DNA from: a virus
Lineage: Duplodnaviria > Heunggongvirae > Uroviricota > Caudoviricetes
Direction: 5' to 3' (one strand)
Virus record (IMG/VR): IMGVR_UViG_2695420569_000027
DNA length: 16,544 nucleotides
Position 1 is the first letter of the stretch, and every line of letters starts with the position of its first letter. A program made the translations under genes and the position numbers. Below are positions 1 through 15,314 of the stretch, one piece after another. A model generated the notes under the pieces. That model did no database searches. It was not told the DNA's origin and saw nothing but the letters and a program-made list of their open reading frames with translations.

Positions 1-243
1 TCAGAAGTGACCGTCCAGGCGGTCACCGAACTCGATAATAAAGCGGCTCATTGCCATACGCCAGTCCCGCAGTGGCATCGTCCATTTCTGTGAAGCCGCC
101 TGGATTGCCAGCCACACGACCTTTTTCACTGAGTCATCCGTCGGGAACACCTTGCGTTTTTTGATGGCATGCCGGATTACGCTGTTCAGCGACTCGATGG
201 CGTTGGTTGTGTAGATGACTAGACTGGCCCCCTGAATCTCCAG
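1..243 (-). pseudogene. IS256-family (Mutator-type) transposase, 3'-terminal fragment; 5' part missing
   Basis: Minus-strand ORF ending at base 1; the C-terminal ~70 aa (YTTNAIESLNSVIRHAIKKRKVFPTDDSVKKVVWLAIQAASQKWTMPLRDWRMAMSRFIIEFGDRL) look like the conserved C-terminus of IS256-family transposases. The N-terminal 47 aa of the track ORF are low-complexity read-through. Fragment boundary is approximate. Confidence 0.55.
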
Positions 244-310
244 ACAACCAGTATCACTTAAATAAGTGATAGTCTTAATACTAGTTTTTAGACTAGTCAT
301 TGGAGAACAG

Positions 311-493
311 ATGATTGATGTCTTAGGGCCGGAGAAACGCAGACGGCGTACCACACAGGAAAAGATCGCAATTGTTCAGCAGAGCTTTGAACCGGGGATG
401 ACGGTCTCCCTCGTTGCCCGGCAACATGGTGTAGCAGCCAGCCAGTTATTTCTCTGGCGTAAGCAATACCAGGAAGGAAGTCTTACACATTGA
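311..493 (+). pseudogene. IS66-family accessory protein TnpA (orfA), 3'-truncated
   Basis: From the internal Met: [59 protein letters not shown], which matches my recollection of IS66/ISEc8-type orfA N-terminal halves. GGAG lies upstream of the ATG at 311. The reading frame stops 2 codons after the point where phoP sequence begins, so only ~60 of ~120 codons remain. Confidence 0.55.
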
Positions 494-593
494 TGTACTG
501 ATGGGACGTCTGCGCAAAAAAATTCAGGCACAATATCCGCAAGAAGTGATTACTACCGTTCGCGGCCAGGGCTATTTGTTCGAATTGCGCTGA
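488..593 (+). pseudogene. phoP: phoP 3'-terminal remnant (last ~35 codons of the PhoP response regulator)
   Basis: Codons 501-590 translate to [30 protein letters not shown] followed by TGA. This is the OmpR-family winged-helix C-terminus of PhoP, and its stop overlaps the phoQ ATG (ATGA at 591-595) as in the native operon. No receiver domain is present upstream. Confidence 0.75.
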
Positions 594-2053
594 TGAAAAA
601 ATTACTGCGTCTTTTTTTCCCGCTCTCACTGCGGGTACGTTTTCTGTTGGCAACGGCTGCGGTAGTACTGGTGCTTTCGCTTGCCTACGGAATGGTCGCG
701 CTGATCGGTTATAGCGTCAGTTTCGATAAAACTACGTTTCGGCTGTTACGTGGCGAGAGCAATCTGTTCTATACCCTTGCGAAGTGGGAAAACAATAAGT
801 TGCATGTCGAGTTACCCGAAAATATCGACAAGCAAAGCCCCACCATGACGCTAATTTATGATGAGAACGGGCAGCTTTTATGGGCGCAACGTGACGTGCC
901 CTGGCTGATGAAGATGATCCAGCCTGACTGGCTGAAATCGAATGGTTTTCATGAAATTGAAGCGGATGTTAACGATACCAGCCTCTTGCTGAGTGGAGAT
1001 CATTCGATACAGCAACAGTTGCAGGAAGTGCGGGAAGATGATGACGACGCGGAGATGACCCACTCGGTGGCAGTAAACGTCTACCCGGCAACATCGCGGA
1101 TGCCAAAATTAACCATTGTGGTGGTGGATACCATTCCGGTGGAGCTAAAAAGTTCCTATATGGTCTGGAGCTGGTTTATCTATGTGCTCTCAGCCAATCT
1201 GCTGTTAGTGATCCCGCTGCTGTGGGTCGCCGCCTGGTGGAGTTTACGCCCCATCGAAGCCCTGGCAAAAGAAGTCCGCGAACTGGAAGAACATAACCGC
1301 GAATTGCTCAATCCAGCCACAACGCGAGAACTGACCAGTCTGGTACGAAACCTGAACCGATTGTTAAAAAGTGAACGCGAACGTTACGACAAATACCGTA
1401 CGACGCTCACCGACCTGACCCATAGTCTGAAAACGCCACTGGCGGTGCTGCAAAGTACGCTGCGTTCTCTGCGTAGTGAAAAGATGAGCGTCAGTGATGC
1501 TGAGCCGGTAATGCTGGAGCAAATCAGCCGCATTTCACAGCAAATTGGCTACTACCTGCATCGTGCCAGTATGCGCGGCGGGACATTGCTCAGCCGCGAG
1601 CTGCATCCGGTCGCCCCACTGCTGGACAATCTCACCTCAGCGCTGAACAAAGTGTATCAACGCAAAGGGGTCAATATCTCTCTCGATATTTCGCCAGAGA
1701 TCAGCTTTGTCGGTGAGCAGAACGATTTTGTCGAGGTGATGGGCAACGTGCTGGATAATGCCTGTAAATATTGCCTCGAGTTTGTCGAAATTTCTGCAAG
1801 GCAAACCGACGAGCATCTCTATATTGTGGTCGAGGATGATGGCCCCGGTATTCCATTAAGCAAGCGAGAGGTCATTTTCGACCGTGGTCAACGGGTTGAT
1901 ACTTTACGCCCTGGGCAAGGTGTAGGGCTGGCGGTAGCCCGCGAAATCACCGAGCAATATGAGGGTAAAATCGTCGCCGGAGAGAGCATGCTGGGCGGTG
2001 CGCGGATGGAGGTGATTTTTAGTCGCCAGCATTCTGCGCCGAAAGATGAATAA
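593..2053 (+). CDS. phoQ: Sensor histidine kinase PhoQ
   Basis: 486-aa ORF with two transmembrane segments, a periplasmic acidic patch (EDDDDAE), a HAMP region, the H-box ([11 protein letters not shown]) and HATPase N/G boxes ([24 protein letters not shown]). It matches E. coli PhoQ essentially end to end. Confidence 0.97.
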
Positions 2054-2176
2054 ATATGTCCTTTTATCACCACACCAAGACAAGCCATTGATTTAATTAA
2101 ATAATCTTCACTGAAAAAAGTGCCAAAAATCGCAAATTGACTACACCATTAACTACACCGTTCGGTGCACCGTATG

Positions 2177-2202
2177 AAACAACGTGGAACAAATAGACAC
2201 AA
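2177..2202. repeat. Three GAACAA-type hexamers phased at 10 bp (site C), near the island's left end
   Basis: aaacaa at 2177, gaacaa at 2187, acacaa at 2197. The 15-mer aacaacgtggaacaa (2178-2192) is identical to 9642-9656. Confidence 0.35.
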
Positions 2203-2515
2203 GAAATATACAGGCGGATCATCTTTCCAGGGGGAAGCGCACCAATTCATGAGGGGCGTTAATGTCTATATGGGGATCCCCACCTACCGGAATTTTTTTC
2301 CGGTTAAACGTTAATCAGGCTGGTGGGCTTTACCTGTTCGGTAGGTGTTATGATTATCGTAATACCTTTCCCCCAATGGGGTAAAAGCATCAACCGTAAC
2401 GAAAGTCGTTATGGTTGCCACTGATACCCCAAATTTGGGTATCACGAGTAAGCCCCAAAATCTGGGTGTTACTCTTACTACCCAAACTACGGGTAGTTTC
2501 CGTAGTTTCATGGTC

Positions 2516-2535
2516 GAGTTGCAGATCTGCAACTC
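2516..2535. repeat. Perfect 20-bp palindrome GAGTTGCAGATCTGCAACTC
   Basis: Direct reading; the second half is the reverse complement of the first. It sits in a palindrome-dense non-coding stretch (2270-2640). Confidence 0.6.
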
Positions 2536-2789
2536 CCCCATTAACCACAGGCGAATTTCCGCCTTCGGTCATTCCTTAATCATCTGCGTAATCATAATGA
2601 TTATTCAGCAAGCGCAATTTTGCGCTTTGCTTAAAGTTCAGCGAGTTACCGCGCCGACTTCCTCAAATTGAGGTTTCCGAAAATATCAGCGGGTTAGCGA
2701 TTAAGCTGACCATTAATTAAACTGCGAAAATGTCGTAGTTGTGAGGGGTGTAGCCAACCCATTTTTGGGCCGTCGGGAATATCAACCAG

Positions 2790-3071
2790 TTACCGCCGCA
2801 ACCGCTCCGGCTTCTTCCAGTGGTACGTTATTTTCTCCTTCTCCCGATACATCTCCACGCGGCGACGGTAGGCCAGCAACTCAAGAACTCTGGTTCGTAT
2901 GTTGCGCATATCCACGCCATTAAGTTCTATACCATCACGGCGCATCACCTCAGCAACAACACGCGCATAGTTTTCGGCTGTCACGCTGTCCGGCTGCGTG
3001 GCCTGTTCGTCAGCCTGCTGGCTGATTCCGGCAACGCGGCGGATTAATCCCGTTATTTCGGCTTCTGTCAT
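2790..3071 (-). CDS. Hypothetical protein (93 aa) immediately downstream of terL
   Basis: ATG at 3071 with GAGG about 9 nt upstream; 13-nt gap after the terL stop. No family recognised. Confidence 0.4.
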   Translation of the reverse strand: MTEAEITGLIRRVAGISQQADEQATQPDSVTAENYARVVAEVMRRDGIELNGVDMRNIRTRVLELLAYRRRVEMYREKEKITYHWKKPERLRR

Positions 3072-3084
3072 GCTGCTGACCTCA

Positions 3085-4746
3085 TTACACCCCGCTAAAT
3101 TCTTCCAGTTTCTGGCGGTGGCTGTCGCTTATATCAAAAGCAAAATCCTCATGCTCTGCCTGGAATGTACCAAACGCCATCAGCGCCGCCACGCTCGGGT
3201 CTATCTTGTTCGGTGATTTTTTCTTGTTCGGCTTGATATTGGCGTTCGCGTCACTCTGCATCACGACGTTACTCATCGACCAGGACAACACCGGATCGCC
3301 ACGATGCACAATCACCCTGCGGTTAACAAAAACTTCGAACGATTTCGCCGCCGGACTGAATCTGAGGTAGGTTTGCGGGAACGGCTCCACCTCAAAACCT
3401 GCCCCCTGTAATTGCGTTCTGAGATGCGTGGCGTTCCACGTATCAAAGCCCACCAGCCTGATATTAAATTTCTCCGCGTCCTGCATGATGTCATCTCTGA
3501 TCCGGTCGTAATCAATGCAGTCGCCAGGCGTTGTGCGTATCCAGCCTGCTTTAGCCCACTGACGATAGATGGCGCGGTTTTTATTGGCGGGGTTCTGTAG
3601 CTGGAACTCCGGCAGATAATGACGGGAAACCAGCATAATGGTTTTACCTACCGGAAAGGCATAGCACACGCTGGAAATATCGCTTGTGGATGATAAATCC
3701 AGCCCCGCGTAACACTCCTGGCCGTGTAAATCTTCCTCCGTGAACGTTCCGGCACACTCAGCCCATGCGCCGTTACCCATCCACGGGGTAGTCCCCTGAC
3801 ACCAGATATTAAATCGCTTTGTCATCATCTCCACCCACTGCGACGGAATACCCCGCGCTTTCTGGATGGTTGAGGCCAGTTTTTCACGATCCACGGAAAC
3901 ATCAATATTAGGGTTCGCCTTTATCCACATCGCCGGATCATCAACCTCGTTTTCGTCGTCCAGTTCGTAAATCAGTACAAAAATTGAATCGTTAACCTCT
4001 TCGCCGTCCAGGATCTGGCAGCAATAATCATAGTGCTGCTTACAGGCTGAAACGACGTTGCTGCCTGATGTGGTAATGGCAAATAACAGCCCTTCGGGAC
4101 GTGCGCCCATCCCCAGCTCAAGCGCGGAATAAACGCCGTTATCGGGGTGCAAGTGGTATTCGTCCACGATGGAAAGGCTGGGGTTTGTTCCCTCGATGGT
4201 TGCCGCTTTTGCTGCCAGCGGCTTTAACAGGCTGTTGCTTTTCGGGTGTATCACCTTATGCGCCTGAATATTCACCCGCCTGCGTAACGGTCGGGATAAA
4301 AGGCACATCTGACGCGCATCATCAAAGACGATCCGCGCCTGGTCACGGCTCACCGCTGCGGTGTAGATATCCTGCTGACCGTTCTCCATAATCAGAAACC
4401 AGTTAGCCAGAATCGCGGCGGTCGTTGATTTCGCATTTTTGCGCGGCACTTCGATAAAGGCGCTCGTATATTTGCGCCGTCCGGTGGCCTTAACCTTAAA
4501 GCCGAGGATGCACGCAAAGGCGAACTGCTGCCACGGCTCCAGCTCAATGGGTCTGCCACGCATCGGCCCTTTTACGTGCGGGCACACCCTGGAAAAGGCA
4601 ATAAACCGATCCACAACCTCACGATCGAACGTGTAAAGGGGGCTTTTAAGGTCCGAAAAGTACCGTTTAACGGCCTGTTTCAGCCGTTTACAGGCCGGAA
4701 TTTTGCCCGTTTTTACGTCTTCTGCGTACTTATTCCAGGCGGTCAA
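3085..4746 (-). CDS. terL: Terminase large subunit (TerL), HK97-like
   Basis: 553 aa; N-terminal ATPase with a Walker A-like motif (VPRKNAKST) and a C-terminal nuclease region typical of Terminase_1-type TerL. The start is TTG at 4746 with GAGGA 5 nt upstream, overlapping the terS 3' end by 17 nt. Confidence 0.92.
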   Translation of the reverse strand: MTAWNKYAEDVKTGKIPACKRLKQAVKRYFSDLKSPLYTFDREVVDRFIAFSRVCPHVKGPMRGRPIELEPWQQFAFACILGFKVKATGRRKYTSAFIEVPRKNAKSTTAAILANWFLIMENGQQDIYTAAVSRDQARIVFDDARQMCLLSRPLRRRVNIQAHKVIHPKSNSLLKPLAAKAATIEGTNPSLSIVDEYHLHPDNGVYSALELGMGARPEGLLFAITTSGSNVVSACKQHYDYCCQILDGEEVNDSIFVLIYELDDENEVDDPAMWIKANPNIDVSVDREKLASTIQKARGIPSQWVEMMTKRFNIWCQGTTPWMGNGAWAECAGTFTEEDLHGQECYAGLDLSSTSDISSVCYAFPVGKTIMLVSRHYLPEFQLQNPANKNRAIYRQWAKAGWIRTTPGDCIDYDRIRDDIMQDAEKFNIRLVGFDTWNATHLRTQLQGAGFEVEPFPQTYLRFSPAAKSFEVFVNRRVIVHRGDPVLSWSMSNVVMQSDANANIKPNKKKSPNKIDPSVAALMAFGTFQAEHEDFAFDISDSHRQKLEEFSGV

Positions 4747-5086
4747 GCTCGTCCTCTTCTTCTGTTTCCGGTGGATTTTTACGGCGGCTTATCGGGTCAA
4801 AACCGAGCAAGGAGGCCATTTTTATCATCACTCTTTCCGCGTCGGATTTCGCGCTTAATGCGGGGTTTCTGCTCTCTCCGCCCTGACTGTTAACAATGCT
4901 GAACCCGCGCGCCGCAAGGTCTGCGACGGCTTTCCGGTATATCGAGTAATTGACGCAATACAGTTCCAGATTGCTCCAGTCGGCGGGAGTCAGGTCACCC
5001 CGTTCCGCAAGCTGCCGCGATTTTTCCCGCCACTGCTTCACGGCGATATCATCCAGGTAGGCGGGGGCTTTCGGTGGTCTTGCCAT
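4730..5086 (-). CDS. terS: Terminase small subunit (TerS), P27-family-like
   Basis: 118 aa, acidic C-terminus; the position directly upstream of and overlapping terL, and the sequence character, fit phage P27-family small terminases. Confidence 0.8.
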   Translation of the reverse strand: MARPPKAPAYLDDIAVKQWREKSRQLAERGDLTPADWSNLELYCVNYSIYRKAVADLAARGFSIVNSQGGESRNPALSAKSDAERVMIKMASLLGFDPISRRKNPPETEEEDELDRLE

Positions 5087-5089
5087 GCT

Positions 5090-5375
5090 TATTTTTTCGC
5101 CAGATTATTTTTCAAAAAATTCCCGTGCATAAAAATTTGAGGAGGCGGTCGGTGCCCGGCGGGGTCGGGTTTGTCCTGAAAACGCCCCCCACCCCGTCAT
5201 ACAGCCTCATCAGCGATTGCGGAAACATTCCATAACCTCGCGGTCACGGTCGGTTAATCGCTTCGCTGTGATGCGTTCTGCGCATCCTGACGCTTTATCT
5301 TTATGCCCTGTTTCCTGTGTCTTCCATGCGTCACGCTGCCTTATAAGTCCACGGATAAGGCGGTTTTGTTCCCGC
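5090..5375. other. Candidate cos / packaging-initiation region between HNH and terS
   Basis: A 290-bp non-coding gap with a GC-rich core (gaggaggcggtcggtgcccggcggggtcgggtttgtcc, ~5139-5177) flanked by AT-rich tracts. HK97-type cos phages place cos upstream of terS and need the adjacent HNH nuclease. This is inference only. Confidence 0.3.
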
Positions 5376-5816
5376 TCATTCATCAGCGTCATACATCCAG
5401 TTATTGCGGTTAGCGGCCCGTTCTTCCTCTTCACGAAATCCACCTGCGGCACGCTTACTTTTTGTTGCCGGATCAAGCCATTTCGTTTTCTGGTTATGGC
5501 ACGCCTGACACAATGGTTGATGGTTCCATTCGGGCCAGAAGAGAACATCATCACCGCCATTAATCGGGATAATGTGATCCACCACCACGGCGGGCGTATA
5601 TATCCCCTTCTCAAGGCATCGCACGCATAACGGGTTTTTACTCAGATACATGGCGCGGTATTTGTCCCACTGTCTGGAGTACCCACGCGCGCGGCGGTGT
5701 CCTCGTCTGGCATCCTCTGCACGCCATGCCGCCCGCCTGTGCTCCTCACACTTGCCGGACTTCACGCGCCTGTTACAGCCTGGTTCTGTGCATCGTCTTA
5801 ATGGTTGCCACGGCAT
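5376..5816 (-). CDS. HNH endonuclease (phage packaging-associated)
   Basis: 146 aa with Cys-rich zinc-binding motifs (CTEPGC, CVRC, CQAC) and the HNH core (VVVDHIIPINGG ... CHNQKT). The start overlaps the stop of the connector gene (TGATG). Confidence 0.88.
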   Translation of the reverse strand: MPWQPLRRCTEPGCNRRVKSGKCEEHRRAAWRAEDARRGHRRARGYSRQWDKYRAMYLSKNPLCVRCLEKGIYTPAVVVDHIIPINGGDDVLFWPEWNHQPLCQACHNQKTKWLDPATKSKRAAGGFREEEERAANRNNWMYDADE

Positions 5817-6112
5817 CAGTACACCCCCACATCACGGTAAGCCGTCCAGAGTGCACCAATCGTCATGGGTACGCGTGTTTTTGCGTTATCCGCGACAATC
5901 TGGCGATTTTCATACAGGTGAGCGATAAACATCATGCAGCCAATCTTTATGGCTGGCGTGAACTCCAGCCCGTCATCAAAGCGCCTGCCTATGTGTATCT
6001 GGCACGCCTCAAGCGATGCGGCAATGTATCCGCTGATTAACTGGTCTTCCTCGTCGCCATCGATGCGGCAATGGAGTTTCACTTCTTCCAGGGTGATAAG
6101 TTCTTCTGTCAT
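5816..6112 (-). CDS. Head-tail connector protein (gp6-like)
   Basis: 98 aa; the N-terminus LITLEEVKLHCRIDGDEED is typical of phage gp6-like head-tail connector (Phage_connect_1-type) proteins. ATGA overlap with the upstream gene. Confidence 0.7.
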   Translation of the reverse strand: MTEELITLEEVKLHCRIDGDEEDQLISGYIAASLEACQIHIGRRFDDGLEFTPAIKIGCMMFIAHLYENRQIVADNAKTRVPMTIGALWTAYRDVGVY

Positions 6113-6447
6113 TTTTCCGCGCCCTCACGACAAAGAATTTCAAGGCGTGTCCTGGCGGCATCCGGCAGCGGCTGCCCGATGATATTCAGTACACGCCCCG
6201 CCAGCGGCCCCGTATTGACCTTTATCCGGCTGGTGGCGTTGATGTCCTTCCTGTAGCGTATCCATACCCTTACCGTTCCAGTCGCCAGTTCTGCACCCGA
6301 TGAAATGGCCTCCTTGCTGCTGATCATGTTCACGCTTGCCCAGAGTGTGTGACCGTCCACCCACGTTTCGAGTATTTCGCCCGTCATGGCTCTGGTCTGT
6401 TTCAGGGTCTGAATCGTTACCCTGTCACGCAGTCGCCCTATGTTCAT
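6109..6447 (-). CDS. Head closure / head-tail adaptor protein (HK97 gp7-like)
   Basis: Start moved to the internal ATG at 6447 (MNIGRLRDRVTIQ...), which overlaps the portal stop (ATGA) and has GGGAGA about 10 nt upstream. Size and position fit a head-tail joining protein. Confidence 0.65.
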   Translation of the reverse strand: MNIGRLRDRVTIQTLKQTRAMTGEILETWVDGHTLWASVNMISSKEAISSGAELATGTVRVWIRYRKDINATSRIKVNTGPLAGRVLNIIGQPLPDAARTRLEILCREGAEK

Positions 6448-7655
6448 TCCGGTTTTTCTCCCTCGCTGATTTTTACTTCCTGTTTCCATGCCTGGCTGAA
6501 CTCATCACCACCATCACGCGGTGACAGTCCTTCACGTTCGCGGGCTTCGTTCGGACACATAACGCCGGATTTGATGCCGCGCTCATAGGTGGCAAAGCGT
6601 TCGCCAGGTGTGGCCCGTAACAGGTCCGCGCTGTCAAACTCCACCTGATACCGGATACCAGGTACAGGCGAGGCCACCAGCAGGGCGTTTTTTATCTGCT
6701 GCTCAAAGTTCGCCAGCCACGGGCGCATCGTCATGGTGAGAAATGCGCGGCTTGCCTCGCTGAAATTGCTGTAGGTGCTGTTGCTGTATTCCTGCAAAAA
6801 AATCGGCGAGACGTTGAACATTCTGGCGATGTCTTCAATGGTGAAGCGACGGGAGGCCAGCCATTCAGCATCCTGATTACTCATGCCCAGCTGCTGATAG
6901 CTCATACCCCCTTCAAGGATGGGCGTTTTTCCGGCGTTTCTGGCCCCTTTGTAGCGTTCCAGTGCGGCTAATGCCTGTTTGCCCTTCACGCCGTCCAGCC
7001 ATTCGCCTGACGTGATAACCCCTGCCGCCATCATGCCATCACGCATCACGCTCGCGCCGTGGCGTTGTTGGGCCAGCCCAAGCCCCAGCGATTCGCGGCA
7101 GATGGTTACAGGTGAGCGCCCCATAAAACCGTCATCCGTGGAGTAACGAAGGTGGAGAACCTCCCACGGTAAATAGTTGCGGGTGTTTCCGGTGTAGGCG
7201 TCAGTGATGCAGTAGCGCCAGTTATGCTCACCTGTCTGCTCAACGTTCACCGACTGCGGCGGGTAAGGATGCAAAGCGACCGGAAAACCATCACGCCCCC
7301 ACTGAATCACCGCATAAGCATTACCGTTTAACAGGCAGTGGCGGATCATCATTCGCTTAAACTGGTAGGGGGTTTGCCATGCGTTCGGGCGCTCGTTGAG
7401 GATGTGATCGACCGGATGAGAATCAAGCCACTCGCGGGCCTCCTTCCCCTTCTCATTGCGTACCAGGTACAGGTAACACGGCATGGTAGCCACCGCCTCA
7501 GAGATGACCGTCACGGCGTTCATGACGGCGGGCAGTGATTCCGCTGTCCCCGATGATACGTACTCACCCGCCCCCGTGTTCGATGTGCCAGCCAGCGCCA
7601 TAAACTCATCAAGCGTCATGCTGCGCTGCTCTTTTTTTCTTCTGAAAGGCCACAT
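6444..7655 (-). CDS. Portal protein, HK97 family
   Basis: 403 aa; its position between protease and adaptor and its sequence character fit HK97-family portals. Confidence 0.9.
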   Translation of the reverse strand: MWPFRRKKEQRSMTLDEFMALAGTSNTGAGEYVSSGTAESLPAVMNAVTVISEAVATMPCYLYLVRNEKGKEAREWLDSHPVDHILNERPNAWQTPYQFKRMMIRHCLLNGNAYAVIQWGRDGFPVALHPYPPQSVNVEQTGEHNWRYCITDAYTGNTRNYLPWEVLHLRYSTDDGFMGRSPVTICRESLGLGLAQQRHGASVMRDGMMAAGVITSGEWLDGVKGKQALAALERYKGARNAGKTPILEGGMSYQQLGMSNQDAEWLASRRFTIEDIARMFNVSPIFLQEYSNSTYSNFSEASRAFLTMTMRPWLANFEQQIKNALLVASPVPGIRYQVEFDSADLLRATPGERFATYERGIKSGVMCPNEAREREGLSPRDGGDEFSQAWKQEVKISEGEKPE

Positions 7656-7656
7656 A

Positions 7657-8229
7657 TCACCCCCCCGCTAAATCCGCCCACCAGCGGCGATTATCCGCAC
7701 GCGGCATTTTTTCGGGGTGCTGCTCATACAGGGAACGGCGGGCCAGCTCCACGTCGGAATCAGGGTAAGCCGGTACGGATGTGACGGTAATTTCGTACAG
7801 TTCCGCCACCAGCACGGTGCGCACGCATGGATCTGTTGTGGTATCCCATACATCCTTACGGGAACGAAAGCCAAAGCTCATGCCGGATATATCACCTCGT
7901 TTAACCAGTTCGATAACGTCGCGCCCTGTACTGGTATCCGGTGGGGTCAGTTCAAAGCGTAACCCTGTTTCGTCCTCTTCCAGTTTCAGCGTGCCGGAAC
8001 GGGTGCGCCCCAGTAACATGCTGTGGTCATGCTCATACAGGCCGCGAACGTCATTACCCGCCGCAAGCCATTCAGTAAACGCCCCCCGCTGGAATTTTTC
8101 GTAAAACTCACCCCATAACAGTTCTGAAAGCTTATCCCAGCGAACAATGTAGCCCGTCAGCGTACCGGCTCCGCTGGTGGTGATTTCCGATGACCGGATT
8201 TCCATACTCTTCATAATTTTTTCACCCAT
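7657..8229 (-). CDS. Prohead maturation protease, HK97 family (S78/U35)
   Basis: 190 aa with the GMSFGF motif region typical of HK97 prohead proteases. The start may instead be the ATG at 8214, which has GGTGA upstream. Confidence 0.88.
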   Translation of the reverse strand: MGEKIMKSMEIRSSEITTSGAGTLTGYIVRWDKLSELLWGEFYEKFQRGAFTEWLAAGNDVRGLYEHDHSMLLGRTRSGTLKLEEDETGLRFELTPPDTSTGRDVIELVKRGDISGMSFGFRSRKDVWDTTTDPCVRTVLVAELYEITVTSVPAYPDSDVELARRSLYEQHPEKMPRADNRRWWADLAGG

Positions 8230-8231
8230 AA

Positions 8232-8258
8232 AACACTAAAGGGGCTTTTAAGCCCCTT
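8232..8258 (-). terminator. Stem-loop between capsid and protease genes (possible partial terminator / attenuator)
   Basis: An 8-bp stem (8239-8246 pairs with 8251-8258, core ggggct/agcccc) with loop ttta, followed on the minus strand by UAGUGUUUUAUGGG. Confidence 0.35.
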
Positions 8259-8268
8259 CTGTATGCTA

Positions 8269-9426
8269 TTAATCGTCGTCCTGTGGCAGTTCCAGAATCT
8301 TGATCGCGTTCGAATCCACCACGCCACCGCCTAAATATTTCTGCGCGAAAATTTTGATGAAGCCCGGCTCTGTGAGGTTGTCCGGTCTGGTGCGAACACC
8401 TGTTTCGTGATCAACAATGTAGTAACCGCGTTTGAAGTCACCCAGGGCAATAACGTTATCCGGCATAAACTCCAGATATTCGACCGGAAGGCCCAGCAAC
8501 GTATCAGGATCACCCGCCTGTAAACGGTCACGCCAGATGTAATCACCGTTCGCGTTCTTCACCTTCTGGAGTTTTGCCGCCGTCGTGGAGTTAACCACCC
8601 AGACCGCGTTTTTGCGGTATTTTTTACGTAATGCAAATTTCAGGTCGATCAGCGGGTCCGCAGATGTCCACGCCAGAGATTCGGAAGGTTTAATTACCTG
8701 CAACGTACCAAAATCACGCTCTTTGTCGTTCTTCTCTGCACGGGGTACGGATAAAAAGCCTTTTGCTTTTTTGTCACCGTCGCCCACAACCAGATCGCTT
8801 TCTTCGGTTTCCGTGAAGGTGTCGCCAATCTCGCCCGTCAGCCATGAAAGGATGTCCACATCGGAAAAATCCACGATTTCCTGCGTGGTGCGCGGGTACG
8901 CATAGACCGGATACAGCTTAATGCTCACCTCGTTAATCTGCGGGGTGCTGGTCTGTTCGCGTGCCTTACCCTCTTCACCGTGGTTAACGGTCGCACCGCC
9001 AGCGGAAACAAGCTGCTTAAACTCGTTGCTGCTGATTTTCTTCACGGTACAGATGCGGCGCATGGTGGATTCATCCGTCAGCATTCGCATGATTTCGGTG
9101 TTCAGTTCGGGGATAACGGTATAACCACCATCAGCGGGAACGCCTGTACTCAATGCGCGGGTTTCACCTGTCAGAATGTAGTGACGTAGTTCGGCGGGGT
9201 CAGTGGTCTGGCTGTTTTTGCCTGGTTTACTGCGCTCTTCGTCAGCAACGGCCTCAAGGCGGGAGATGTCTTTATCGAGGGATTCAGCTTTAGCGCGTAA
9301 TTCGTCAAATTTTGCGCCCTCAGCATCGTTAAGGCTGCGGTTTTCTTTTTCCGCGTTCTCCAGCATGTCGCGCATCTGATTTTTAATGGCGGTTTTCTGC
9401 TGGCGTAATTCGATTATTCTCGGCAT
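8269..9426 (-). CDS. Major capsid protein, HK97 fold, with N-terminal delta/scaffold-like domain
   Basis: About 385 aa from the ATG at 9426 (the track ORF begins at an upstream GTG at 9474). The N-terminal ~100 aa are coiled-coil rich, like an HK97 delta domain, followed by a capsid core. Confidence 0.9.
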   Translation of the reverse strand: MPRIIELRQQKTAIKNQMRDMLENAEKENRSLNDAEGAKFDELRAKAESLDKDISRLEAVADEERSKPGKNSQTTDPAELRHYILTGETRALSTGVPADGGYTVIPELNTEIMRMLTDESTMRRICTVKKISSNEFKQLVSAGGATVNHGEEGKAREQTSTPQINEVSIKLYPVYAYPRTTQEIVDFSDVDILSWLTGEIGDTFTETEESDLVVGDGDKKAKGFLSVPRAEKNDKERDFGTLQVIKPSESLAWTSADPLIDLKFALRKKYRKNAVWVVNSTTAAKLQKVKNANGDYIWRDRLQAGDPDTLLGLPVEYLEFMPDNVIALGDFKRGYYIVDHETGVRTRPDNLTEPGFIKIFAQKYLGGGVVDSNAIKILELPQDDD

Positions 9427-9517
9427 AAAAAAAGTCCTGAAGTTAAGTAAGGAACTCCAGGACGCGGCAAACACTCAACCGTTTTTCATAAGGAAATCAG
9501 CAATCGCACCGATCGTT

Positions 9518-9563
9518 TTCCCGCCTGGTAATGAATATTGGCGGGCACATTAACAGGCGGGAA
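9518..9563. promoter_or_regulatory. 10-bp inverted repeat (ttcccgcctg / caggcgggaa) in the capsid-operon leader
   Basis: 9518-9527 is the exact reverse complement of 9554-9563; the 26-bp spacer contains a partial ggcggg copy. Confidence 0.25.
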
Positions 9564-9640
9564 AGTGGCCCCAGCGTCCTGGCACCACGGGCGAGAATAA
9601 TCATGATTCAGTTCGGGTAAAATATGCCGATCCGGTCAGC

Positions 9641-9666
9641 GAACAACGTGGAACAACCACGAACAA
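9641..9666. repeat. Three GAACAA hexamers at exact 10-bp phasing (site B), upstream of the capsid operon
   Basis: gaacaa at 9641, 9651 and 9661. 17 of 18 bases match the reverse complement of 15223-15240, and 15 of 15 match 2178-2192. Confidence 0.4.
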
Positions 9667-9684
9667 ATAATTTACAAAACATGA

Positions 9685-9707
9685 CAAAAAGCCGGATTGC
9701 TCCGGCT
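9685..9707 (-). terminator. Rho-independent terminator after the PerC-like gene
   Basis: Minus-strand RNA AGCCGGA-GCAA-UCCGGCU (7-bp GC-rich stem, GNRA-type loop) followed by UUUUUGU. Confidence 0.55.
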
Positions 9708-9713
9708 GTGTGA

Positions 9714-9986
9714 TTATCTGTCCTGGTAATTTCGCCATATTTCATCACCAGCACCATCCATACCCATTTCGGCATAAGTGCGATCGACCGCCTTTTTCAG
9801 GTCTCCGTAATTATCCGGCGGCTCCGGTGGCCTCTGTGCCTTCCTGGAACATTCCAGCCGTCGCATCGTGATGTGATGCCGTTCCTTGTCTGTCTCCACC
9901 AGTTGCATGACTTCACCCCATCGCGCCGACGCTCTCCGGTAAAAGCCTTTCGCCTCCAGTTCTTCCGCTATGCGGTCATGTACCAT
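9714..9986 (-). CDS. PerC-family-like transcriptional activator (putative)
   Basis: From the ATG at 9986: MVHDRIAEELEAKGFYRRASARWGEVM..., which matches my recollection of the PerC/Pch signature (LE.KG..RRA..RW). The ssb stop is 13 nt upstream. Confidence 0.5.
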   Translation of the reverse strand: MVHDRIAEELEAKGFYRRASARWGEVMQLVETDKERHHITMRRLECSRKAQRPPEPPDNYGDLKKAVDRTYAEMGMDGAGDEIWRNYQDR

Positions 9987-9998
9987 CGTCCCCACCCC

Positions 9999-10409
9999 TC
10001 AGAACGGAATATCATCACCGTAAGGGTCATCGCCTCCCGCTGGTGGCTGATTACCCTGTGTGCCTGTGGTCTTGCGTCGGCTCCCACCAAGACGTGCCGC
10101 ACGGGCACTGATTACGCTGTCTGCAATAACCTGATAACCCTGCCGCGTTTCCCCGTTCTGTCCGGTCCACTGGCTGACCTGCATCGTGCCGGATACGCTG
10201 GCAACGTCGCCTTTTTGATGTTTAGCCAGGAAGTCGGCCTGCTTACCAAATGCGATGACCGATAGCCATAACGTCGCCTGTCCATCCTGTGCCTGGCTGC
10301 ATGGCAGCGATACCGCCATACGCGCCAGCGTCATCGGTGTACCCTTGCTGGTCTGTTTTACCTGCGGGTCGTCCACCAGCCGCCCGTAAGCTGCAATTTG
10401 TGCTGTCAT
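9999..10409 (-). CDS. ssb: Single-stranded DNA-binding protein
   Basis: 136 aa with an OB-fold-like N-terminus, a Gly/Pro-rich linker and the hallmark acidic tail ending DDIPF. GAGGTG lies 6 nt upstream of the ATG. Confidence 0.92.
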   Translation of the reverse strand: MTAQIAAYGRLVDDPQVKQTSKGTPMTLARMAVSLPCSQAQDGQATLWLSVIAFGKQADFLAKHQKGDVASVSGTMQVSQWTGQNGETRQGYQVIADSVISARAARLGGSRRKTTGTQGNQPPAGGDDPYGDDIPF

Positions 10410-10418
10410 ATTGCCACC

Positions 10419-10724
10419 TCAGTGAAGCGATCCGGCGTTGTTCTTTTTCATCTCTTCCATCATTTTTTCAGTGAGCATTACGCACTGAAAACCCATGTTT
10501 TTGATGTCTACGGGCTTCATGCCTTTATCAGTGGATATCACAGGCAGAATATCCTGATACACATCGCGGTCAGGGTAACTAAGCACACAAAGCGCCCATG
10601 ATGCCACGGGTGAGGATCCTTCGTCTGTTTCAACCCACCAGCCTGGTGTAGCTGCGCTTATTTGCTGAATCGTGATCCGTCCGTTGTGCTTGTAAAGTTT
10701 TTCACCAAATTTTGGTTCGCTCAT
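10419..10724 (-). CDS. Hypothetical protein (101 aa)
   Basis: ATG at 10724 with GGAGAG 8 nt upstream, overlapping the upstream stop (ATGA). No family recognised. Confidence 0.5.
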   Translation of the reverse strand: MSEPKFGEKLYKHNGRITIQQISAATPGWWVETDEGSSPVASWALCVLSYPDRDVYQDILPVISTDKGMKPVDIKNMGFQCVMLTEKMMEEMKKNNAGSLH

Positions 10725-10972
10725 GATTCCAACTCTCCGGTTTTAACGTTGATGGTTGTTACCTGTTCCGCTTCGGCAATCTCCCGTTCTGTCAGCGTGG
10801 CAAAGTTTGCCGCCGCCGTGGTCATGAATGCGCTTATCAGGTCGGGATGTTCCTTCGCGTATCCTTCCCGCGTGTGGCGGTCTATCGTTCTGATTGCCAC
10901 CTTTAAGGTGTGCTCAGTCATGTCTAACGCTTTATATTTTGGCTCTGTTCTGTCTCTGCGTTTTTGGGTCAT
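10721..10972 (-). CDS. Hypothetical protein (~83 aa)
   Basis: Start moved to the ATG at 10972 (GAGAGG upstream), because the track's GTG-initiated N-terminus is translated from the iteron repeats. Confidence 0.4.
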   Translation of the reverse strand: MTQKRRDRTEPKYKALDMTEHTLKVAIRTIDRHTREGYAKEHPDLISAFMTTAAANFATLTEREIAEAEQVTTINVKTGELES

Positions 10973-10984
10973 TTCTCGCAACCT

Positions 10985-11174
10985 CTCACTTTTTCGCCTC
11001 ACTTTTTCAAGCGTCTCACTTCGTCGCAGTTGGGATTTTCGGTTTTTCTATGTGTGTGTTTCATAAGTATTTTTTCACCCCTCACTTTTGAGGATGTATA
11101 CAGGTCGAAAAGTGAGGGGGAGCGGGCTAATTTTGGCCCTCTTTCTATCCCCCTCGCTTTTGCTCCTCACTTTT
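10985..11174. repeat. Iteron cluster (CTCACTTTT) flanking an AT-rich core: candidate replication origin
   Basis: CTCACTTTT at 10985, 10998, 11081 and 11166; variants at 11015 and 11153; an inverted copy (aaaagtgag) at 11108. An AT-rich tgtgtgtgtt tract lies between the clusters. The whole region is immediately 3' of the rep gene. Confidence 0.5.
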
Positions 11175-12573
11175 ATAGCGGCGCTACATCATCCCCATCG
11201 ATACGAATAACCCCATCTTTTTCCAGCTTGTACAGCCAGCGCCGGAAGTTTTTCATTTCATACCCCAGCTTTTTCATGTCATCACGTAACATCTGGATCG
11301 TGCACTTGTCGCCGTTCTGTGTGCGTGAACGGATGCACCCCCATAGCGCGGTATGGTTTTCCGTCTTGTTCCCTGCCTCCTCGATGCGCTCCAGTTCAAC
11401 AGGAGGGCGCGGATCATCCACCACCACCAGCGACGTGATTAATTCACCGTCAGCGTCGGTAAAAAGCTCCACCACGCGTAAGTCATATGCGGCTTCTTTG
11501 AGTTCCTCCGCGTCCTTCATTTTGGTGCATGAGATAACCAGCGCTTCGCTTCCTGCGTCCTCCCTGCGTATCCGGTATTCAGCATCCAGCGAAGCACGAA
11601 ATGCACTGGAACCGCGCGCGCCTTTCGTCTCATCCTTGCCGGAATGGTGAACCACCAGCACCGTGGCCCCTGTGCGTCGTTTCAGTTCGTCACAACCACG
11701 GATAAACGCCCCCATATCACGGGAATCATTTTCATCATTCCCACCAAAGCAACGCGCCAGCGTATCCAGAATAATCATGCGTACAGGTTTACCCGTTTCC
11801 CGCTCCACCTGACGGGCAGCGATAACCATTTCATCAACATCAAGCGGGGCAGCCGGAAAGATGGGGCGGTTTACCAGATACAGATTTTTCACCTGCTCAT
11901 CGTGCACAACCTCCCAGGCTTTTACACGACGCGGAACACCTATACCGCCTTCACCAACCACATAGAGAACCGCACCATGTGCAACCCTGCGGCCTCCCCA
12001 CTGGCGACCAGTGGCAACATGGCACGCCCACGATCCGGCAAGGAATGATTTATAGGACCCGCTAGCCCCGTATATGCTGCATAGCGATACCGCCGGAATA
12101 ATCCCCTTAACCACGTAATCCAGTTGCGTGTCGTATCCGGTAGATCCAACGCTCATCGGTAGCGTGGTTTTTCGCTGGTGGTTTTTTTCTTCCGCCGGCT
12201 CTTTCCCGCGCACCCGTTCCAGGTATTCGCGCCAGTTCTCCCGCATATGGCTGTGCATCCCTTCGGGGTAATAATTCGCATCAGTTACGCCCGCCGCCGC
12301 CAGCTTGTGCGCAATGGCATTAATATTTGATGGCCTGATGTGGCCTGCCTTGTACAGCCGGACACAATAGCGCCCCTCGTCGATGATTCTCAGGTCTGCC
12401 AGTTCATCCAGTTGATCATCAGCCAGCACAATGGGAGGCACATTATCGCCAGCCAGTCGCCCGTCCTGTTCCTGCCACTGTTTCGCATGTGCCCACGCAT
12501 CACTACCCGCAAAAATGATGACTTCGGTCATCTTGTCGTAAGGCTGTTTTTTTAAGTTCGGTGCGCTTTTCAT
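11173..12573 (-). CDS. Replication initiator with AAA_25 / RecA-like ATPase domain (PICI Rep-like)
   Basis: 466 aa with Walker A (GASGSYKSF), Walker B-like (MIILDTLARCF) and the HHSGKD motif typical of RepA/AAA_25 replication ATPases. Which satellite Rep subfamily it belongs to is not resolved. Confidence 0.8.
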   Translation of the reverse strand: MKSAPNLKKQPYDKMTEVIIFAGSDAWAHAKQWQEQDGRLAGDNVPPIVLADDQLDELADLRIIDEGRYCVRLYKAGHIRPSNINAIAHKLAAAGVTDANYYPEGMHSHMRENWREYLERVRGKEPAEEKNHQRKTTLPMSVGSTGYDTQLDYVVKGIIPAVSLCSIYGASGSYKSFLAGSWACHVATGRQWGGRRVAHGAVLYVVGEGGIGVPRRVKAWEVVHDEQVKNLYLVNRPIFPAAPLDVDEMVIAARQVERETGKPVRMIILDTLARCFGGNDENDSRDMGAFIRGCDELKRRTGATVLVVHHSGKDETKGARGSSAFRASLDAEYRIRREDAGSEALVISCTKMKDAEELKEAAYDLRVVELFTDADGELITSLVVVDDPRPPVELERIEEAGNKTENHTALWGCIRSRTQNGDKCTIQMLRDDMKKLGYEMKNFRRWLYKLEKDGVIRIDGDDVAPL

Positions 12574-12869
12574 TTCTTGCCCCTGAATCCGTTAACCATG
12601 GTTTTCAGCTTCTGGATGTTTGCCCGTGCCCTGGCGTTGCTGGTGGGCACGTTATGCGGCGCGGTCTGTACCAGAGAAAAATCACGCCGGAACTGATAAA
12701 CAGGCATCACGCAATCATATTCGTAACCTTCACGGCGGTAGGTTACGCGCCGTTCTTCCACGCCCTTAATCATTACCGTGCCGCCGTACTGGTCGCGGTA
12801 AATATCACCGCGCGTAAATTTAGGGTGAGTGTTGCCACTGGCAGTTAAGCCAGAATATTTAAGTTTCAT
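12570..12869 (-). CDS. Hypothetical protein (99 aa)
   Basis: Stop overlaps the rep start (ATGA); part of the tightly packed operon. Confidence 0.5.
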   Translation of the reverse strand: MKLKYSGLTASGNTHPKFTRGDIYRDQYGGTVMIKGVEERRVTYRREGYEYDCVMPVYQFRRDFSLVQTAPHNVPTSNARARANIQKLKTMVNGFRGKK

Positions 12870-12874
12870 TATTT

Positions 12875-13108
12875 TTATTCTCCGGTGTGCTGTTCTTTAT
12901 ATCTGTCGTGCAATAGATCTATTTCTTGCAGTTCCATTATTACAGGCTCAAGAAGCGTTATTAATGCCGTGGCAATTCTTGATTTTTGTTTGTCGCGTTC
13001 ATTGTCGCCAAGTGTTTCAAGCCATATGCGCAATATTTCCAGCATGTTTTCACTGTGAGAAAGTGCAAGAAATGCGCGGTCTATTGTTTGGTGGTAAATA
13101 TCACGCAT
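12875..13108 (-). CDS. Hypothetical protein (77 aa)
   Basis: Overlaps the upstream gene by 8 nt; predicted helical. Confidence 0.45.
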   Translation of the reverse strand: MRDIYHQTIDRAFLALSHSENMLEILRIWLETLGDNERDKQKSRIATALITLLEPVIMELQEIDLLHDRYKEQHTGE

Positions 13109-13565
13109 GGCTTACATCCTCAGGAAATTTTCTTCTATAACGCGCCTCTGCCACATATTCCGCATAATCGGCGGCGATATTCAGTACATCAAGCCCCGTT
13201 GATTTATATTCTCTCGTGGAAAGTAAGAAAAAAGCCGCTCTAATAAGTTCTGGCATTGACGAAAGCGCATCAGCCGCATCATCAGGAACGCCGGAAAATT
13301 CCTGTTTCAGGGAATTAAAACGATCATCACGCATAACCCCCCCATTTTCACAATCAGCAATCAGGATAGCTTTGGCCTCATTCAGCGCCGTATCAGCACT
13401 AAATTGCATGACAGCCAGTGAGTGAGGAACGAAAGCACCGGCATATTCTGTTTCGCTGGTGGCGTGCTTATGTGCCCTGTCCGCGATAACAGAAATATCA
13501 ATCAGCGCGTGCATCAGCGTTTTGATGGCTTCGGCGGCTGCGTCCGGTGTGGTTTTATTGTGCAT
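13101..13565 (-). CDS. Hypothetical protein (154 aa)
   Basis: Largest unassigned ORF in the early operon; start overlaps the upstream gene's 3' end. Confidence 0.55.
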   Translation of the reverse strand: MHNKTTPDAAAEAIKTLMHALIDISVIADRAHKHATSETEYAGAFVPHSLAVMQFSADTALNEAKAILIADCENGGVMRDDRFNSLKQEFSGVPDDAADALSSMPELIRAAFFLLSTREYKSTGLDVLNIAADYAEYVAEARYRRKFPEDVSHA

Positions 13566-13767
13566 AAAGCATCCCCTGAATATTCGTGTTAATCATTCCG
13601 GCACGTTTTGTGATTTCCTGTAATGATTCCCTTGTGGCGACAATTGCTTCATCTGGTAAGTGGTAATTACACACCACGCGACCTTTATCCACATTGACCA
13701 GTAGCTGCCCTGTGAATTTCTCACGAAACTGAATGCGGTTAAGGTCAGTAAGTGACAGATTAATCAT
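13555..13767 (-). CDS. Hypothetical protein (~70 aa)
   Basis: Start at the internal ATG at 13767 (MINLSL...) with AGGAGG 6 nt upstream; the track ORF extends further upstream. Confidence 0.45.
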   Translation of the reverse strand: MINLSLTDLNRIQFREKFTGQLLVNVDKGRVVCNYHLPDEAIVATRESLQEITKRAGMINTNIQGMLYAQ

Positions 13768-13957
13768 GGCGCACCTCCTGACGAATACGGGCGGCAAATA
13801 CAGCAACACAACCGGACGGGCAACGGTTACGCGCTTCGCGTTCCGTCCAGGCGGTTACGTGGATGATTTGAGATTCTCCGGCACTCAGTGCCAGAAAACG
13901 CCACACAAAGGCCGTTTGTGTGTGTACAAGGTGTGGTATATGATTTACGGCAACCAT
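13760..13957 (-). CDS. Small hypothetical protein (~65 aa), first gene of the minus-strand early operon
   Basis: ATG at 13957 preceded by AGGAG 5 nt upstream; the stop overlaps the next start. The remainder of the 314-aa track ORF upstream is judged spurious. Confidence 0.3.
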   Translation of the reverse strand: MVAVNHIPHLVHTQTAFVWRFLALSAGESQIIHVTAWTEREARNRCPSGCVAVFAARIRQEVRHD

Positions 13958-14045
13958 AACGGCTCCTAGTTTACGTTGTTGGTTAGACGCCCCGTATGTG
14001 TTCCCAGCACTGCGGGGCGTTGATTTTTGTGTAATGGCAAGTACA

Positions 14046-14090
14046 ATGGTAATTACCATGTAGGTATAGTAATAAAGGGTAATTACCATG
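14046..14090. promoter_or_regulatory. Paired palindromic operators (GGTAATTACC core) overlapping the divergent promoter region
   Basis: ATGGTAATTACCAT at 14046-14059 is a perfect 14-bp palindrome; GGTAATTACC recurs at 14078-14087 directly before the ATG at 14088 (30 bp centre to centre). A TATAGT -10-like hexamer at 14065-14070 lies between them. Confidence 0.5.
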
Positions 14091-14261
14091 TCAACACCAT
14101 TAGAAAAACGTTCGCCTCCATACCAAATGCGATTACCGGAAGACTTCAGAGCGCAGCTAGAAGAAGCAGCTAAGGCCGATGGCGACACATCTTTAGCCAC
14201 TTGGATTAAACGCGTTCTCCGCAAAGAATTACAGCAACGCGGCATAGAACCCAAAGGATAA
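14088..14261 (+). CDS. Arc/MetJ-type ribbon-helix-helix DNA-binding protein (57 aa), putative repressor
   Basis: Not in the ORF track (under 60 aa). MSTPLEKRSPPYQMRLPEDFRAQLEEAAKADGDTSLATWIKRVLRKELQQRGIEPKG has the beta-strand/helix/helix pattern of Arc-like repressors, and the start codon is embedded in the operator palindrome. Confidence 0.6.
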   Translation: MSTPLEKRSPPYQMRLPEDFRAQLEEAAKADGDTSLATWIKRVLRKELQQRGIEPKG

Positions 14262-14318
14262 AAACTATCAGCGCCGTGGTGTGAGGTATTACGGCGCATT
14301 GCTATGCAGGACAACACA

Positions 14319-14492
14319 ATGACCGATAAAGAATTGACCAAAACATTATCACCGGCACGGAAAAGACGGCGCAGAAAGATAGAGCATGAATCAGAAAGAT
14401 TCGCGCCATGTGCTTTTGCCCTTGAGCAATTCCTTAAAGAGTACAGGGAAACGCGCCCATTGCAGGTATGGCAACGAACTGAACCAGACTGA
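14319..14492 (+). CDS. Small basic protein (57 aa), co-oriented with the RHH gene
   Basis: Internal ATG at 14319 with AGGA 8 nt upstream (MTDKELTKTLSPARKRRRRKIEH...). No family recognised; it may be non-coding. Confidence 0.3.
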   Translation: MTDKELTKTLSPARKRRRRKIEHESERFAPCAFALEQFLKEYRETRPLQVWQRTEPD

Positions 14493-14587
14493 TAGCATTG
14501 CCCACCAGCCTGATAGCGGCTATCATCCCCGTGCTTATGTTTGGGATCATATACACATAAGGCGCAGCGGGTTATCTGTTCAGAAAG

Positions 14588-14615
14588 GCGGCTCCATTTC
14601 GGGGCCGCTTTTTTT
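14588..14615 (+). terminator. Rho-independent terminator for the plus-strand RHH module
   Basis: GCGGCUCC-AUUUC-GGGGCCGC (8-bp stem with one G-U pair) followed by seven T. Confidence 0.55.
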
Positions 14616-14761
14616 ATGCCTGAAAAACCCCAATTTTGTGGTTTTCCAGTCTCACCAGGGCGAACGAATCCCCGCCCACGTTCTGGCGTATATTCAATCT
14701 TCATGGTTATAGCTCTGTGTTCAGATGATTGATGTGTGGCGGCTGTGTGCCGCCAGCGTGA

Positions 14762-14950
14762 TTAATGAACTGCCTTGCAGCTATCCTTCCAGGCCAGAAC
14801 CTCGGATAAAGACCAGCCAACGGAACGACCGCCAAGTTTACGACGTGATGGGAATTGTCCGGCCTTTTCCAGGCGGTAGCGACACGTACGGCTAAGGCCG
14901 GTTAGTTTTTCGCATTCTTTTTCACGTATAAACCGATCAGTGCTTAACAC
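14762..14950 (-). CDS. alpA: AlpA-family transcriptional regulator / excisionase-like protein
   Basis: 62 aa; EKLTGLSRTCRYRLEKAGQFPSRRKLGGRSVGWSLSEVLAWK matches the AlpA (Phage_AlpA) winged-helix signature. GTG start with GGGGG upstream. Confidence 0.88.
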   Translation of the reverse strand: MLSTDRFIREKECEKLTGLSRTCRYRLEKAGQFPSRRKLGGRSVGWSLSEVLAWKDSCKAVH

Positions 14951-15222
14951 TATTGCCCCCTTTCGTTTCTTAAAGAGTCATCAGGTGTCTTATTGTGTCG
15001 TATTGTTCCCGCTAGAGTGATGAATGGCAAATACTGAGGATGTATGATTTACAGAAAATGAAAAAGTAAGAATAAAATCTTTTAAATTCATGTTAATACA
15101 AAGGCATAAAATATTGTTCCATGCCTTTTTTCTCGCTCTTTAAAGAGTGATTCGCTAGTGTATAAAAAACCAGTAACACATTAAAAATCAGCTACTTATA
15201 AATCCGTACGCTTTTTCGCCTC

Positions 15223-15275
15223 TTGTTCGTAGTTGTTCCACATTGTTGCTCATTGTTGCACGTTGTATCTGTTCG
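15223..15275. repeat. Five to six TTGTTC-type hexamers at exact 10-bp phasing (site A), in the int-alpA intergenic region
   Basis: ttgttc at 15223 and 15233, ttgttg at 15243 and 15253, ttgtat at 15263, tgttc at 15270. The first 18 bp are the reverse complement of site B with one mismatch. Confidence 0.45.
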
Positions 15276-15314
15276 CATATCCAGTATGCGCATACTGAAA
15301 AAACACGAAAAAAA

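Follow-up and report, generated by a model that had tools for sequence, protein, structure and literature searches.

With a probability that we put at roughly 0.93, positions 2052–2061 of the DNA analysed here (16,544 nucleotides, called the window throughout) are the recombinant junction between a chromosome and a capsid-forming PICI (cf-PICI), inserted at the attB site between phoQ and roxA (ycfD) that is the known site of EcCICFT073 and EcCIEDL933. By PICI map convention, which draws int at the left, this junction is attR, the integrase-distal one. The feature at the phoQ side is thus the already known ycfD-phoQ attachment site of PICIs, and because both the site and its core were published in 2018, current understanding is unchanged. 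What we gain is one island boundary fixed to within a few bases, just clear of a phoQ that the satellite leaves intact. The anatomy of attP that we propose below would add a modest amount of novelty.

phoQ is a 486-aa ORF on the plus strand (593–2053) that ends in a TAA stop codon at 2051–2053, and it is annotated in all of the relatives that we fetched, K-12 EC600 and FORC_042 included. Window positions 1800–3100 and 1960–2200 were compared against 5,426 complete E. coli genomes. The end of phoQ was matched in every one of them (5,426/5,426), and in the island-free genomes the match to the window ends at 2061 (allele ..ATATGTCC) or at 2058 (the K-12 allele, ..ATATGCCC). The empty K-12 site reads gaaTAAATATGCCCatacttcacg—or at greater length ...GATGAATAAATATGCCCATACTTCACGCATTACG..., with roxA reached 75 bp past the phoQ stop—and the window reads ...GATGAATAAATATGTCC|TTTTATCACCACACC... 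across the junction; everything from 2062 to 2135 is missing from K-12. An earlier note on this DNA had asked for just such an alignment to island-free genomes, and the alignment places the breakpoint at 2058/2061. The note had claimed that the junction lies within about 120 bp of the phoQ stop, and had named, as what would overturn this, an island-free genome with 2054–2790 following phoQ; none exists among the 5,426, and none of the island-free ones continues past 2061 with window sequence. The claim stands, with the junction at the far left edge of 2054–2170.

Island DNA starts, then, at 2062 at the latest, and only the first 8 bases of 2054–2170 do not belong to the island; the crossover lies 0–8 bp past the phoQ stop. 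Since empty sites match only to 2058 or 2061, 2062–2170 is island DNA, the integrase-distal arm of attP, rather than a gap in the chromosome. It is kept across classical and capsid-forming PICIs at the phoQ-roxA site (alignment A2). The earlier statement that island-type sequence is present by 2177 was true, if over-cautious. The exact phoQ-side junction had no match in a scan of one genome per species, and a synthetic query for it with the C allele (discussed below) found a best match of 95.6% identity; the window has private SNPs near the junction.

All of the genes from about 2062 to the end of the window are on the minus strand, in keeping with the observation that no plus-strand gene follows phoQ, and the annotation of relatives has no CDS between phoQ and a 93-aa ORF at 2790–3071. 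ARAGORN detected neither tRNAs nor tmRNAs, whether in the window or at the empty site of K-12, and no Rfam family reached its gathering score in the window. With insertion in the phoQ-roxA (ycfD) intergenic region, the proposal that this satellite uses an att site near a protein gene, and not a tRNA gene, is upheld. A scan of 1900–3100 for promoters and terminators gave chance levels of each (2 versus 1.7 expected, and 1 versus 1.4 expected, respectively).

The att identity block is AAATATGTCC, which occurs once in the window (2052–2061), its first two bases being also the final two of the phoQ stop. In FORC_042, FRIK944, CFT073 and EDL933 the block is found at both island ends, as a direct repeat. 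It had been thought that the att core could not be delimited without the right flank; this holds for the window alone, which stops at the int start codon and so contains one copy and no second junction, but not for complete relatives, in which the repeat pair is seen and delimits AAATATGTCC. In FORC_042 the island lies between phoQ and roxA, its int-side end abutting roxA, and the distance from core to core is 14,785 bp. AAATATGTCC is the reverse complement of the att core GGACATATTT that is listed at 'ycfD-phoQ' for EcCICFT073 by Fillol-Salom et al. 2018 (PMC6092414, Table S1). PCR results reported there support excision and circularisation, and integration of a plasmid was found to depend on int-attP (PMC6092414). 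cf-PICIs use six attB sites in E. coli, and have four of these in common with classical PICIs (cf-PICI paper). Of the 5,426 complete E. coli genomes, 600 (about 11%) carry an insertion at the phoQ-roxA site.

To look at the fine structure of the core, we reconstructed attP from two arms, the integrase-side one of FORC_042 and the one in the window. The junction of the rebuilt attP coincides exactly with a perfect inverted repeat of 8 bp, TGATAAAA/TTTTATCA, whose halves are separated by the 7-bp spacer TATGTCC. Such a repeat landed on the junction in 18 of 20,000 shuffles of the central 130 bp, and the whole window contains only two other perfect 8-bp inverted repeats with spacers of 6–8 bp. 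We infer that TGATAAAA and TTTTATCA are core-type sites and that TATGTCC is the overlap. Three features, to none of which a strand is assigned (nor to the identity block), would then succeed one another in the window: a chromosomal half-site B, TGAATAAA, at 2047–2054, which matches TGATAAAA at 6/8 positions and contains the phoQ stop codon; the putative overlap, or strand-exchange region, at 2055–2061; and a likely island half-site C', TTTTATCA, at 2062–2069, which is the inverted partner of TGATAAAA in the integrase-side arm and comprises the first island-only bases. The overlap is common to attP and attB, the K-12 T/C variant excepted. Two observations count against this arrangement: the chromosomal B' half-site, ATACTTCA, matches C' at only 4/8 positions, which weakens the core model, and K-12, with TATGCCC, has one mismatch inside the proposed overlap, which weakens its placement.

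The mismatch is at position 2059, which carries T in the majority of E. coli; the C of K-12-like strains is found in about one fifth of genomes, a figure from identity bands that is a rough guide. The recipients in published experiments were DH5alpha and 594. Both of these are K-12 derivatives. Since K-12 carries the mismatch and K-12-type strains are recipients all the same, either one mismatch is tolerated or the exchange takes place further left, within AAATATG. We fetched the genomes of NCTC86 and MEI4BO-21 to settle which alleles occur at natural junctions. Most are T/T; NCTC86 has C at both (L006 5853–5870 and 17034–17050), and in MEI4BO-21 the phoQ-side junction carries T and the roxA-side one C (L007 5787–5805 and 17034–17050). 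Evidently, a T/C mismatch inside the att core is tolerated or resolved by integration. The mixture is compatible with a heteroduplex within the 7-bp overlap, and compatible, too, with exchange further left in AAATATG.

This second reading, in which the junction is right but strands are exchanged in AAATATG (2052–2058) and not in TATGTCC (2055–2061), strikes us as unlikely, although three observations speak for it. AAATATG is the only stretch identical across all attB alleles; K-12-type sites read AAATATGCCC and yet have been recipients in published work; and the pair of alleles in MEI4BO-21, T next to phoQ and C next to roxA, is the outcome to be expected from exchange left of 2059. AAATATG, however, lacks flanking inverted half-sites, and it is TATGTCC that has the halves of a perfect 8-bp inverted repeat on either side. 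A centre at 2058, moreover, gives the published 81/132 bp geometry described below, and in an element that is inserted in tqsA, the corresponding block, TGCTGTTAT, starts right after TGATAAAA, in register with TATGTCC. The C at both junctions of NCTC86 also fits heteroduplex segregation inside the overlap. We continue, for these reasons, with TATGTCC as the probable overlap.

At 2140–2159, on the plus strand of the integrase-distal arm, is a doubled 8-mer, ACTACACC-ATTA-ACTACACC, whose halves are candidate arm-type sites for the integrase. The two copies of ACTACACC, at 2140 and 2152, are the only ones in the window (0.27 expected), and every complete relative has a co-oriented copy of the doublet beside int. 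Measured from the centre of the overlap, the doublet starts 82 bp away on the integrase-distal arm and ends 132 bp away on the integrase-side arm. We examined nine complete elements in all; seven of the phoQ type and the tqsA type display both distances, and an IS110-type element has 132 bp on its integrase-side arm, the one arm that could be measured. The window itself has 82 bp on its one arm. PICIs that are embedded in their helpers, studied by the Williams laboratory, carry a doubled motif at 81±2 and 132±2 bp (PMC10111431), and this agreement in geometry supports both the placement of the overlap and the assignment of the doublets as arm sites. Binding of AlpA or some other protein to the doublet is an alternative possibility, one that the authors of that work raise as well (PMC10111431). 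A scan for the doubled motif produced 17 matches where about 4 would be expected by chance, an estimate based on 19 specified bases. Two of these are in Shigella flexneri SFBU1023, in a related island 93–97% identical to the window; the other 15, mostly in metagenome-assembled genomes of unrelated phyla, we presume to be due to chance.

The helper-embedded PICIs, too, have a doubled 8-mer arranged 8 + 4 + 8 and present in two co-oriented copies, at about 81 bp to one side of the centre of attP and about 132 bp to the other, as opposed to exactly 82 and 132 bp here. The 8-mers differ—ACTACACC in the element of the window, and TGTATTGC in theirs (doublet tgTGTATTGCantgTGTATTGCa)—and so do the targets, which are prophage late genes for helper-embedded PICIs and a chromosomal intergenic site in the present case. 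Their motif was stated not to be found in other PICIs (PMC10111431).

Between the core and the doublet, at 2081–2093 on the minus strand, is a match to the IHF consensus, WATCAANNNNTTR (AATCAATGGCTTG), a candidate bending site. The window contains three matches to this consensus versus 0.56 expected by chance, and the one at 2081–2093 is kept in the tqsA element despite different flanks. To its left, a part of the arm at 2062–2087 (no strand assigned) is site-specific and differs in the otherwise ~98% identical tqsA cf-PICI. To its right, a segment of about 80 bp at 2136–2210, on the plus strand, resembles the integrase-side arm when both arms are aligned (alignment A1). We considered that this segment might be the remnant of a second, tandem island, and rejected the idea: it is collinear, kept in every element, and at fixed distances from the junction. 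Read from the sequence, the segment includes three repeats at 10-bp spacing, TGAAACAA / TGGAACAA / AGACACAA, at 2175–2202; they are probably the 'phased repeats' of the earlier note. Judged by the sites that it contains, 2062–2170 would be a functional arm of attP and not spacer DNA.

Could the island end further right, at the 26-bp direct repeat AATTAACTACACCATTAACTACACCG (about 2136–2161), leaving 2054–2135 as chromosomal DNA or the remnant of another element? AATTAACTACACCATTAACTACACCG is, after all, a direct repeat at both ends of these elements, and the published table of cores (PMC6092414, Table S1) gives its reverse complement for EcCIDI14, under 'att site core'. We consider both halves of this proposal extremely improbable. 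Empty sites part from the window at 2059 or 2062, and not at 2136, and 2062–2135 is wholly absent from K-12, so that the comparison of empty sites by itself already refutes the repeat as an island end. In EcCIDi14, furthermore, the repeat lies inside the annotated edges of the interrupted IS110-family gene fragments, by about 63 bp at the integrase-distal end and about 116 bp at the integrase end. Its constant distances from the junction, 82 and 132 bp, are what one would expect of arm sites and not of a crossover site.

For EcCIDI14 (L009, E. coli clone D i14), the published core CGGTGTAGTTAATGGTGTAGTTAATT is thus the doubled arm motif in reverse complement, and its position, well within the element, means that it is not where crossover takes place. 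The cores published for yejM (TTTGTAGTTATACG twice) have the same tandem form and may, by analogy, be arm repeats as well. Some caution is in order, for direct repeats near the ends of islands can be arm sites rather than the crossover site.

If TATGTCC is the overlap, integration might proceed as follows. The 409-aa tyrosine integrase would bind the inverted core sites TGATAAAA and TTTTATCA in attP, and exchange strands across the 7-bp TATGTCC that the chromosome carries right after the phoQ stop. Its N-terminal arm-binding domain would bind the doubled ACTACACC at 82 bp on the arm in the window and at 132 bp on the integrase-side arm, and an IHF-type bend at 2081–2093 would join arm to core. 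This scheme makes three predictions: that the sequence beyond 16544 reads ...CACTAATTGATAAAATATG(T/C)CCATACTTCACG and then enters roxA; that the junction of the excised circle is TGATAAAATATGTCCTTTTATCA; and that the empty site is GAATAAATATG(T/C)CCATACTTCA. Because the crossover follows the stop codon, the reading frame and stop codon of phoQ should be unchanged by the insertion. roxA should retain 67 bp of native upstream sequence, parted from phoPQ by about 14.8 kb.

Phage lambda attP combines inverted core sites and a 7-bp overlap with arm-type sites on both arms, a separate N-terminal integrase domain, and IHF between. The attP proposed here, as predicted from sequence, is alike in the inverted core sites, the 7-bp overlap, the arm sites and the position of IHF. 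It differs in that its integrase is of another group, with an Arm-DNA-bind_3 N-terminal domain, and in its arm motifs, which are tandem doublets with the same orientation on either arm.

Strain 10159 has a nearly identical cf-PICI that splits tqsA (L003 17968–18000 and 32838–32860). The repeat derived independently for it, TGCTGTTAT, equals the core ATAACAGCA given for tqsA in the published list (PMC6092414, Table S1). This element aligns with the arm in the window only from 2088 onward, and when its attP is compared with ours, only about 30 bp around the crossover and the doublet spacer differ, the latter being AGTG instead of ATTA in both arms. Between the two integrases, identity is 91% overall and falls to 65% over the first 40 residues. 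A reading that we favor by a small measure is that PICIs of the phoQ-roxA site and helper-embedded PICIs share one attP scaffold, with doublets at 82/132 bp, in which the arms and the left half-site (TGATAAAA or TTATAAAA) are constant. A cassette of only about 30 bp, consisting of the overlap and right half-site (2055–2087), would be swapped, and would retarget 91% identical integrases to phoQ-roxA, to tqsA, or to an IS110 gene. As a corollary, one or more of the published PICI 'att cores' (that of EcCIDI14, possibly also those at yejM) would be an arm repeat and not the crossover site. If this anatomy of attP is confirmed, this group of integrases would lend itself to studying how a short cassette reprograms the choice of target.

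The EcCIEDL933-like element to which this junction belongs occupies 2062–16544, on the minus strand, and runs off the end of the window, which stops short of the second junction and of some 250 bp of the arm on the integrase side. The last gene before the junction is the conserved 93-aa ORF mentioned above, also on the minus strand. It is kept in classical and capsid-forming PICIs at phoQ-roxA and at tqsA, and matches no family in Pfam or NCBIfam. Then come, all on the minus strand, TerL (3085–4746, with Pfam ATPase and nuclease domains of TerL); genes for a P27-type TerS (Pfam Terminase_4), an HNH protein, a head-tail connector and a head closure protein, named with the help of the FORC_042 gene list; a portal (6444–7655); and a major capsid protein (8269–9474; Pfam Phage_capsid) accompanied by an HK97 protease. 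Genes of PerC type, SSB type and RepA-helicase type (the last with Pfam AAA_25) are present on the same strand, as are an AlpA-family regulator (14762–14950; PF05930, E = 5e-17), a family with a role in PICI induction (PMC6092414), and the complete 409-aa tyrosine integrase (15315–16544), for which the window's final triplet serves as start codon. The integrase matches Phage_integrase (PF00589, E = 1.5e-16) and Arm-DNA-bind_3 (PF13356, E = 5.3e-18); its match to Phage_int_M (PF22022, E = 1.6e-4), at 22.3 bits, is under the Pfam gathering cut-off of 27 bits. Genes for tails or lysis are missing, as they are from the complete list for the FORC_042 element (98.9% identical). By its genes the element is a capsid-forming PICI, and the earlier view of it as a satellite is supported by int, alpA, the RepA-type helicase, and the HK97-type head and terminase genes.

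EcCIEDL933, of E. coli O157:H7 EDL933, is the prototype cf-PICI. It occupies the same roxA-phoQ site in the same orientation, with int beside roxA and the same 10-bp repeat at both ends, and it has the packaging module in common (major capsid protein, protease, portal, head closure, connector, HNH, TerS and TerL), at 97% DNA identity over window 2778–9709. Their replication modules differ: a RepA-family helicase in the window versus a DUF927 protein in EDL933. Induction by a helper, and packaging in small capsids that are joined to helper tails, have been demonstrated for EcCIEDL933 only (cf-PICI paper). EcCICFT073, the model classical Gram-negative PICI, shares the attB and core of the island in the window, its integrase is 96.8% identical, its integrase-distal arm is the same as far as about window 2333, and it keeps the 93-aa terminal ORF. 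Unlike the island in the window, it lacks genes for terminase, portal, protease and HNH, and is 11.4 kb long as against about 14.8 kb.

FORC_042 carries the closest complete relative, at 98.9% identity over window 478–14335 and 96.7% over 14564–16544. The packaging half of the island, 2088–9709, is 98–99% identical to the tqsA cf-PICI of strain 10159, and 10721–16477 is 99.7% identical to a classical PICI of O157:H7 FRIK944. The island is a mosaic, and these identities imply recent recombination between the two kinds of PICI. A 314-aa ORF at 13760–14704 (minus strand) has an Icd-like cell-division-inhibitor domain only at its C-terminus, residues 266–309. It may be a fusion; the matching region of FORC_042 is annotated as two genes.

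The non-coding DNA at 2334–2777, between the attP arm and the 93-aa ORF, has no counterpart in EcCICFT073. It is 98% common with the tqsA cf-PICI, and absent or replaced in classical PICIs at the same site. It contains inverted repeats at 2377–2431, 2425–2495 and 2477–2506, with perfect 8-bp ones at 2422 and 2485. Because classical PICIs carry a cos site at the matching position (according to the literature), 2334–2777 is a candidate cos or packaging site for the island's TerS-TerL-HNH machinery.

The junction might be real and yet a scar, left by an element no longer able to excise. Some O157:H7 strains have a same-site element whose integrase is broken by an IS3-family insertion; the second junction of the present island is outside the window; and the host genome beside it has been rearranged by IS elements, with phoP cut at 478–486. 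The element in the window, however, has a complete 409-aa int ORF with all three domains, 96.8% identical to the functional integrase of EcCICFT073. alpA is intact, and the core, C' half-site, IHF match and doubled motif are intact, too, and identical to those of relatives. We think a fossil copy quite improbable.

Of phoP, only the last ~116 bases are left, at 478–593 of window 1–593. Upstream of this remnant are a fragment of an IS256-family transposase gene (within 1–354, minus strand) and the left end of IS2 (about 220–486). Window 1–486 is 99.8% identical, in the same orientation, to EDL933 sequence located past espK, some 7 kb outside the roxA-side end of the island and about 24 kb away from the phoP breakpoint; at the joint (478–486), 9 bases are common to both segments. 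This IS2-phoP joint occurs in 0 of the 5,426 complete E. coli genomes. A tandem duplication could have created such a novel joint, as could some other IS-associated rearrangement, and the strain is probably PhoP-deficient.
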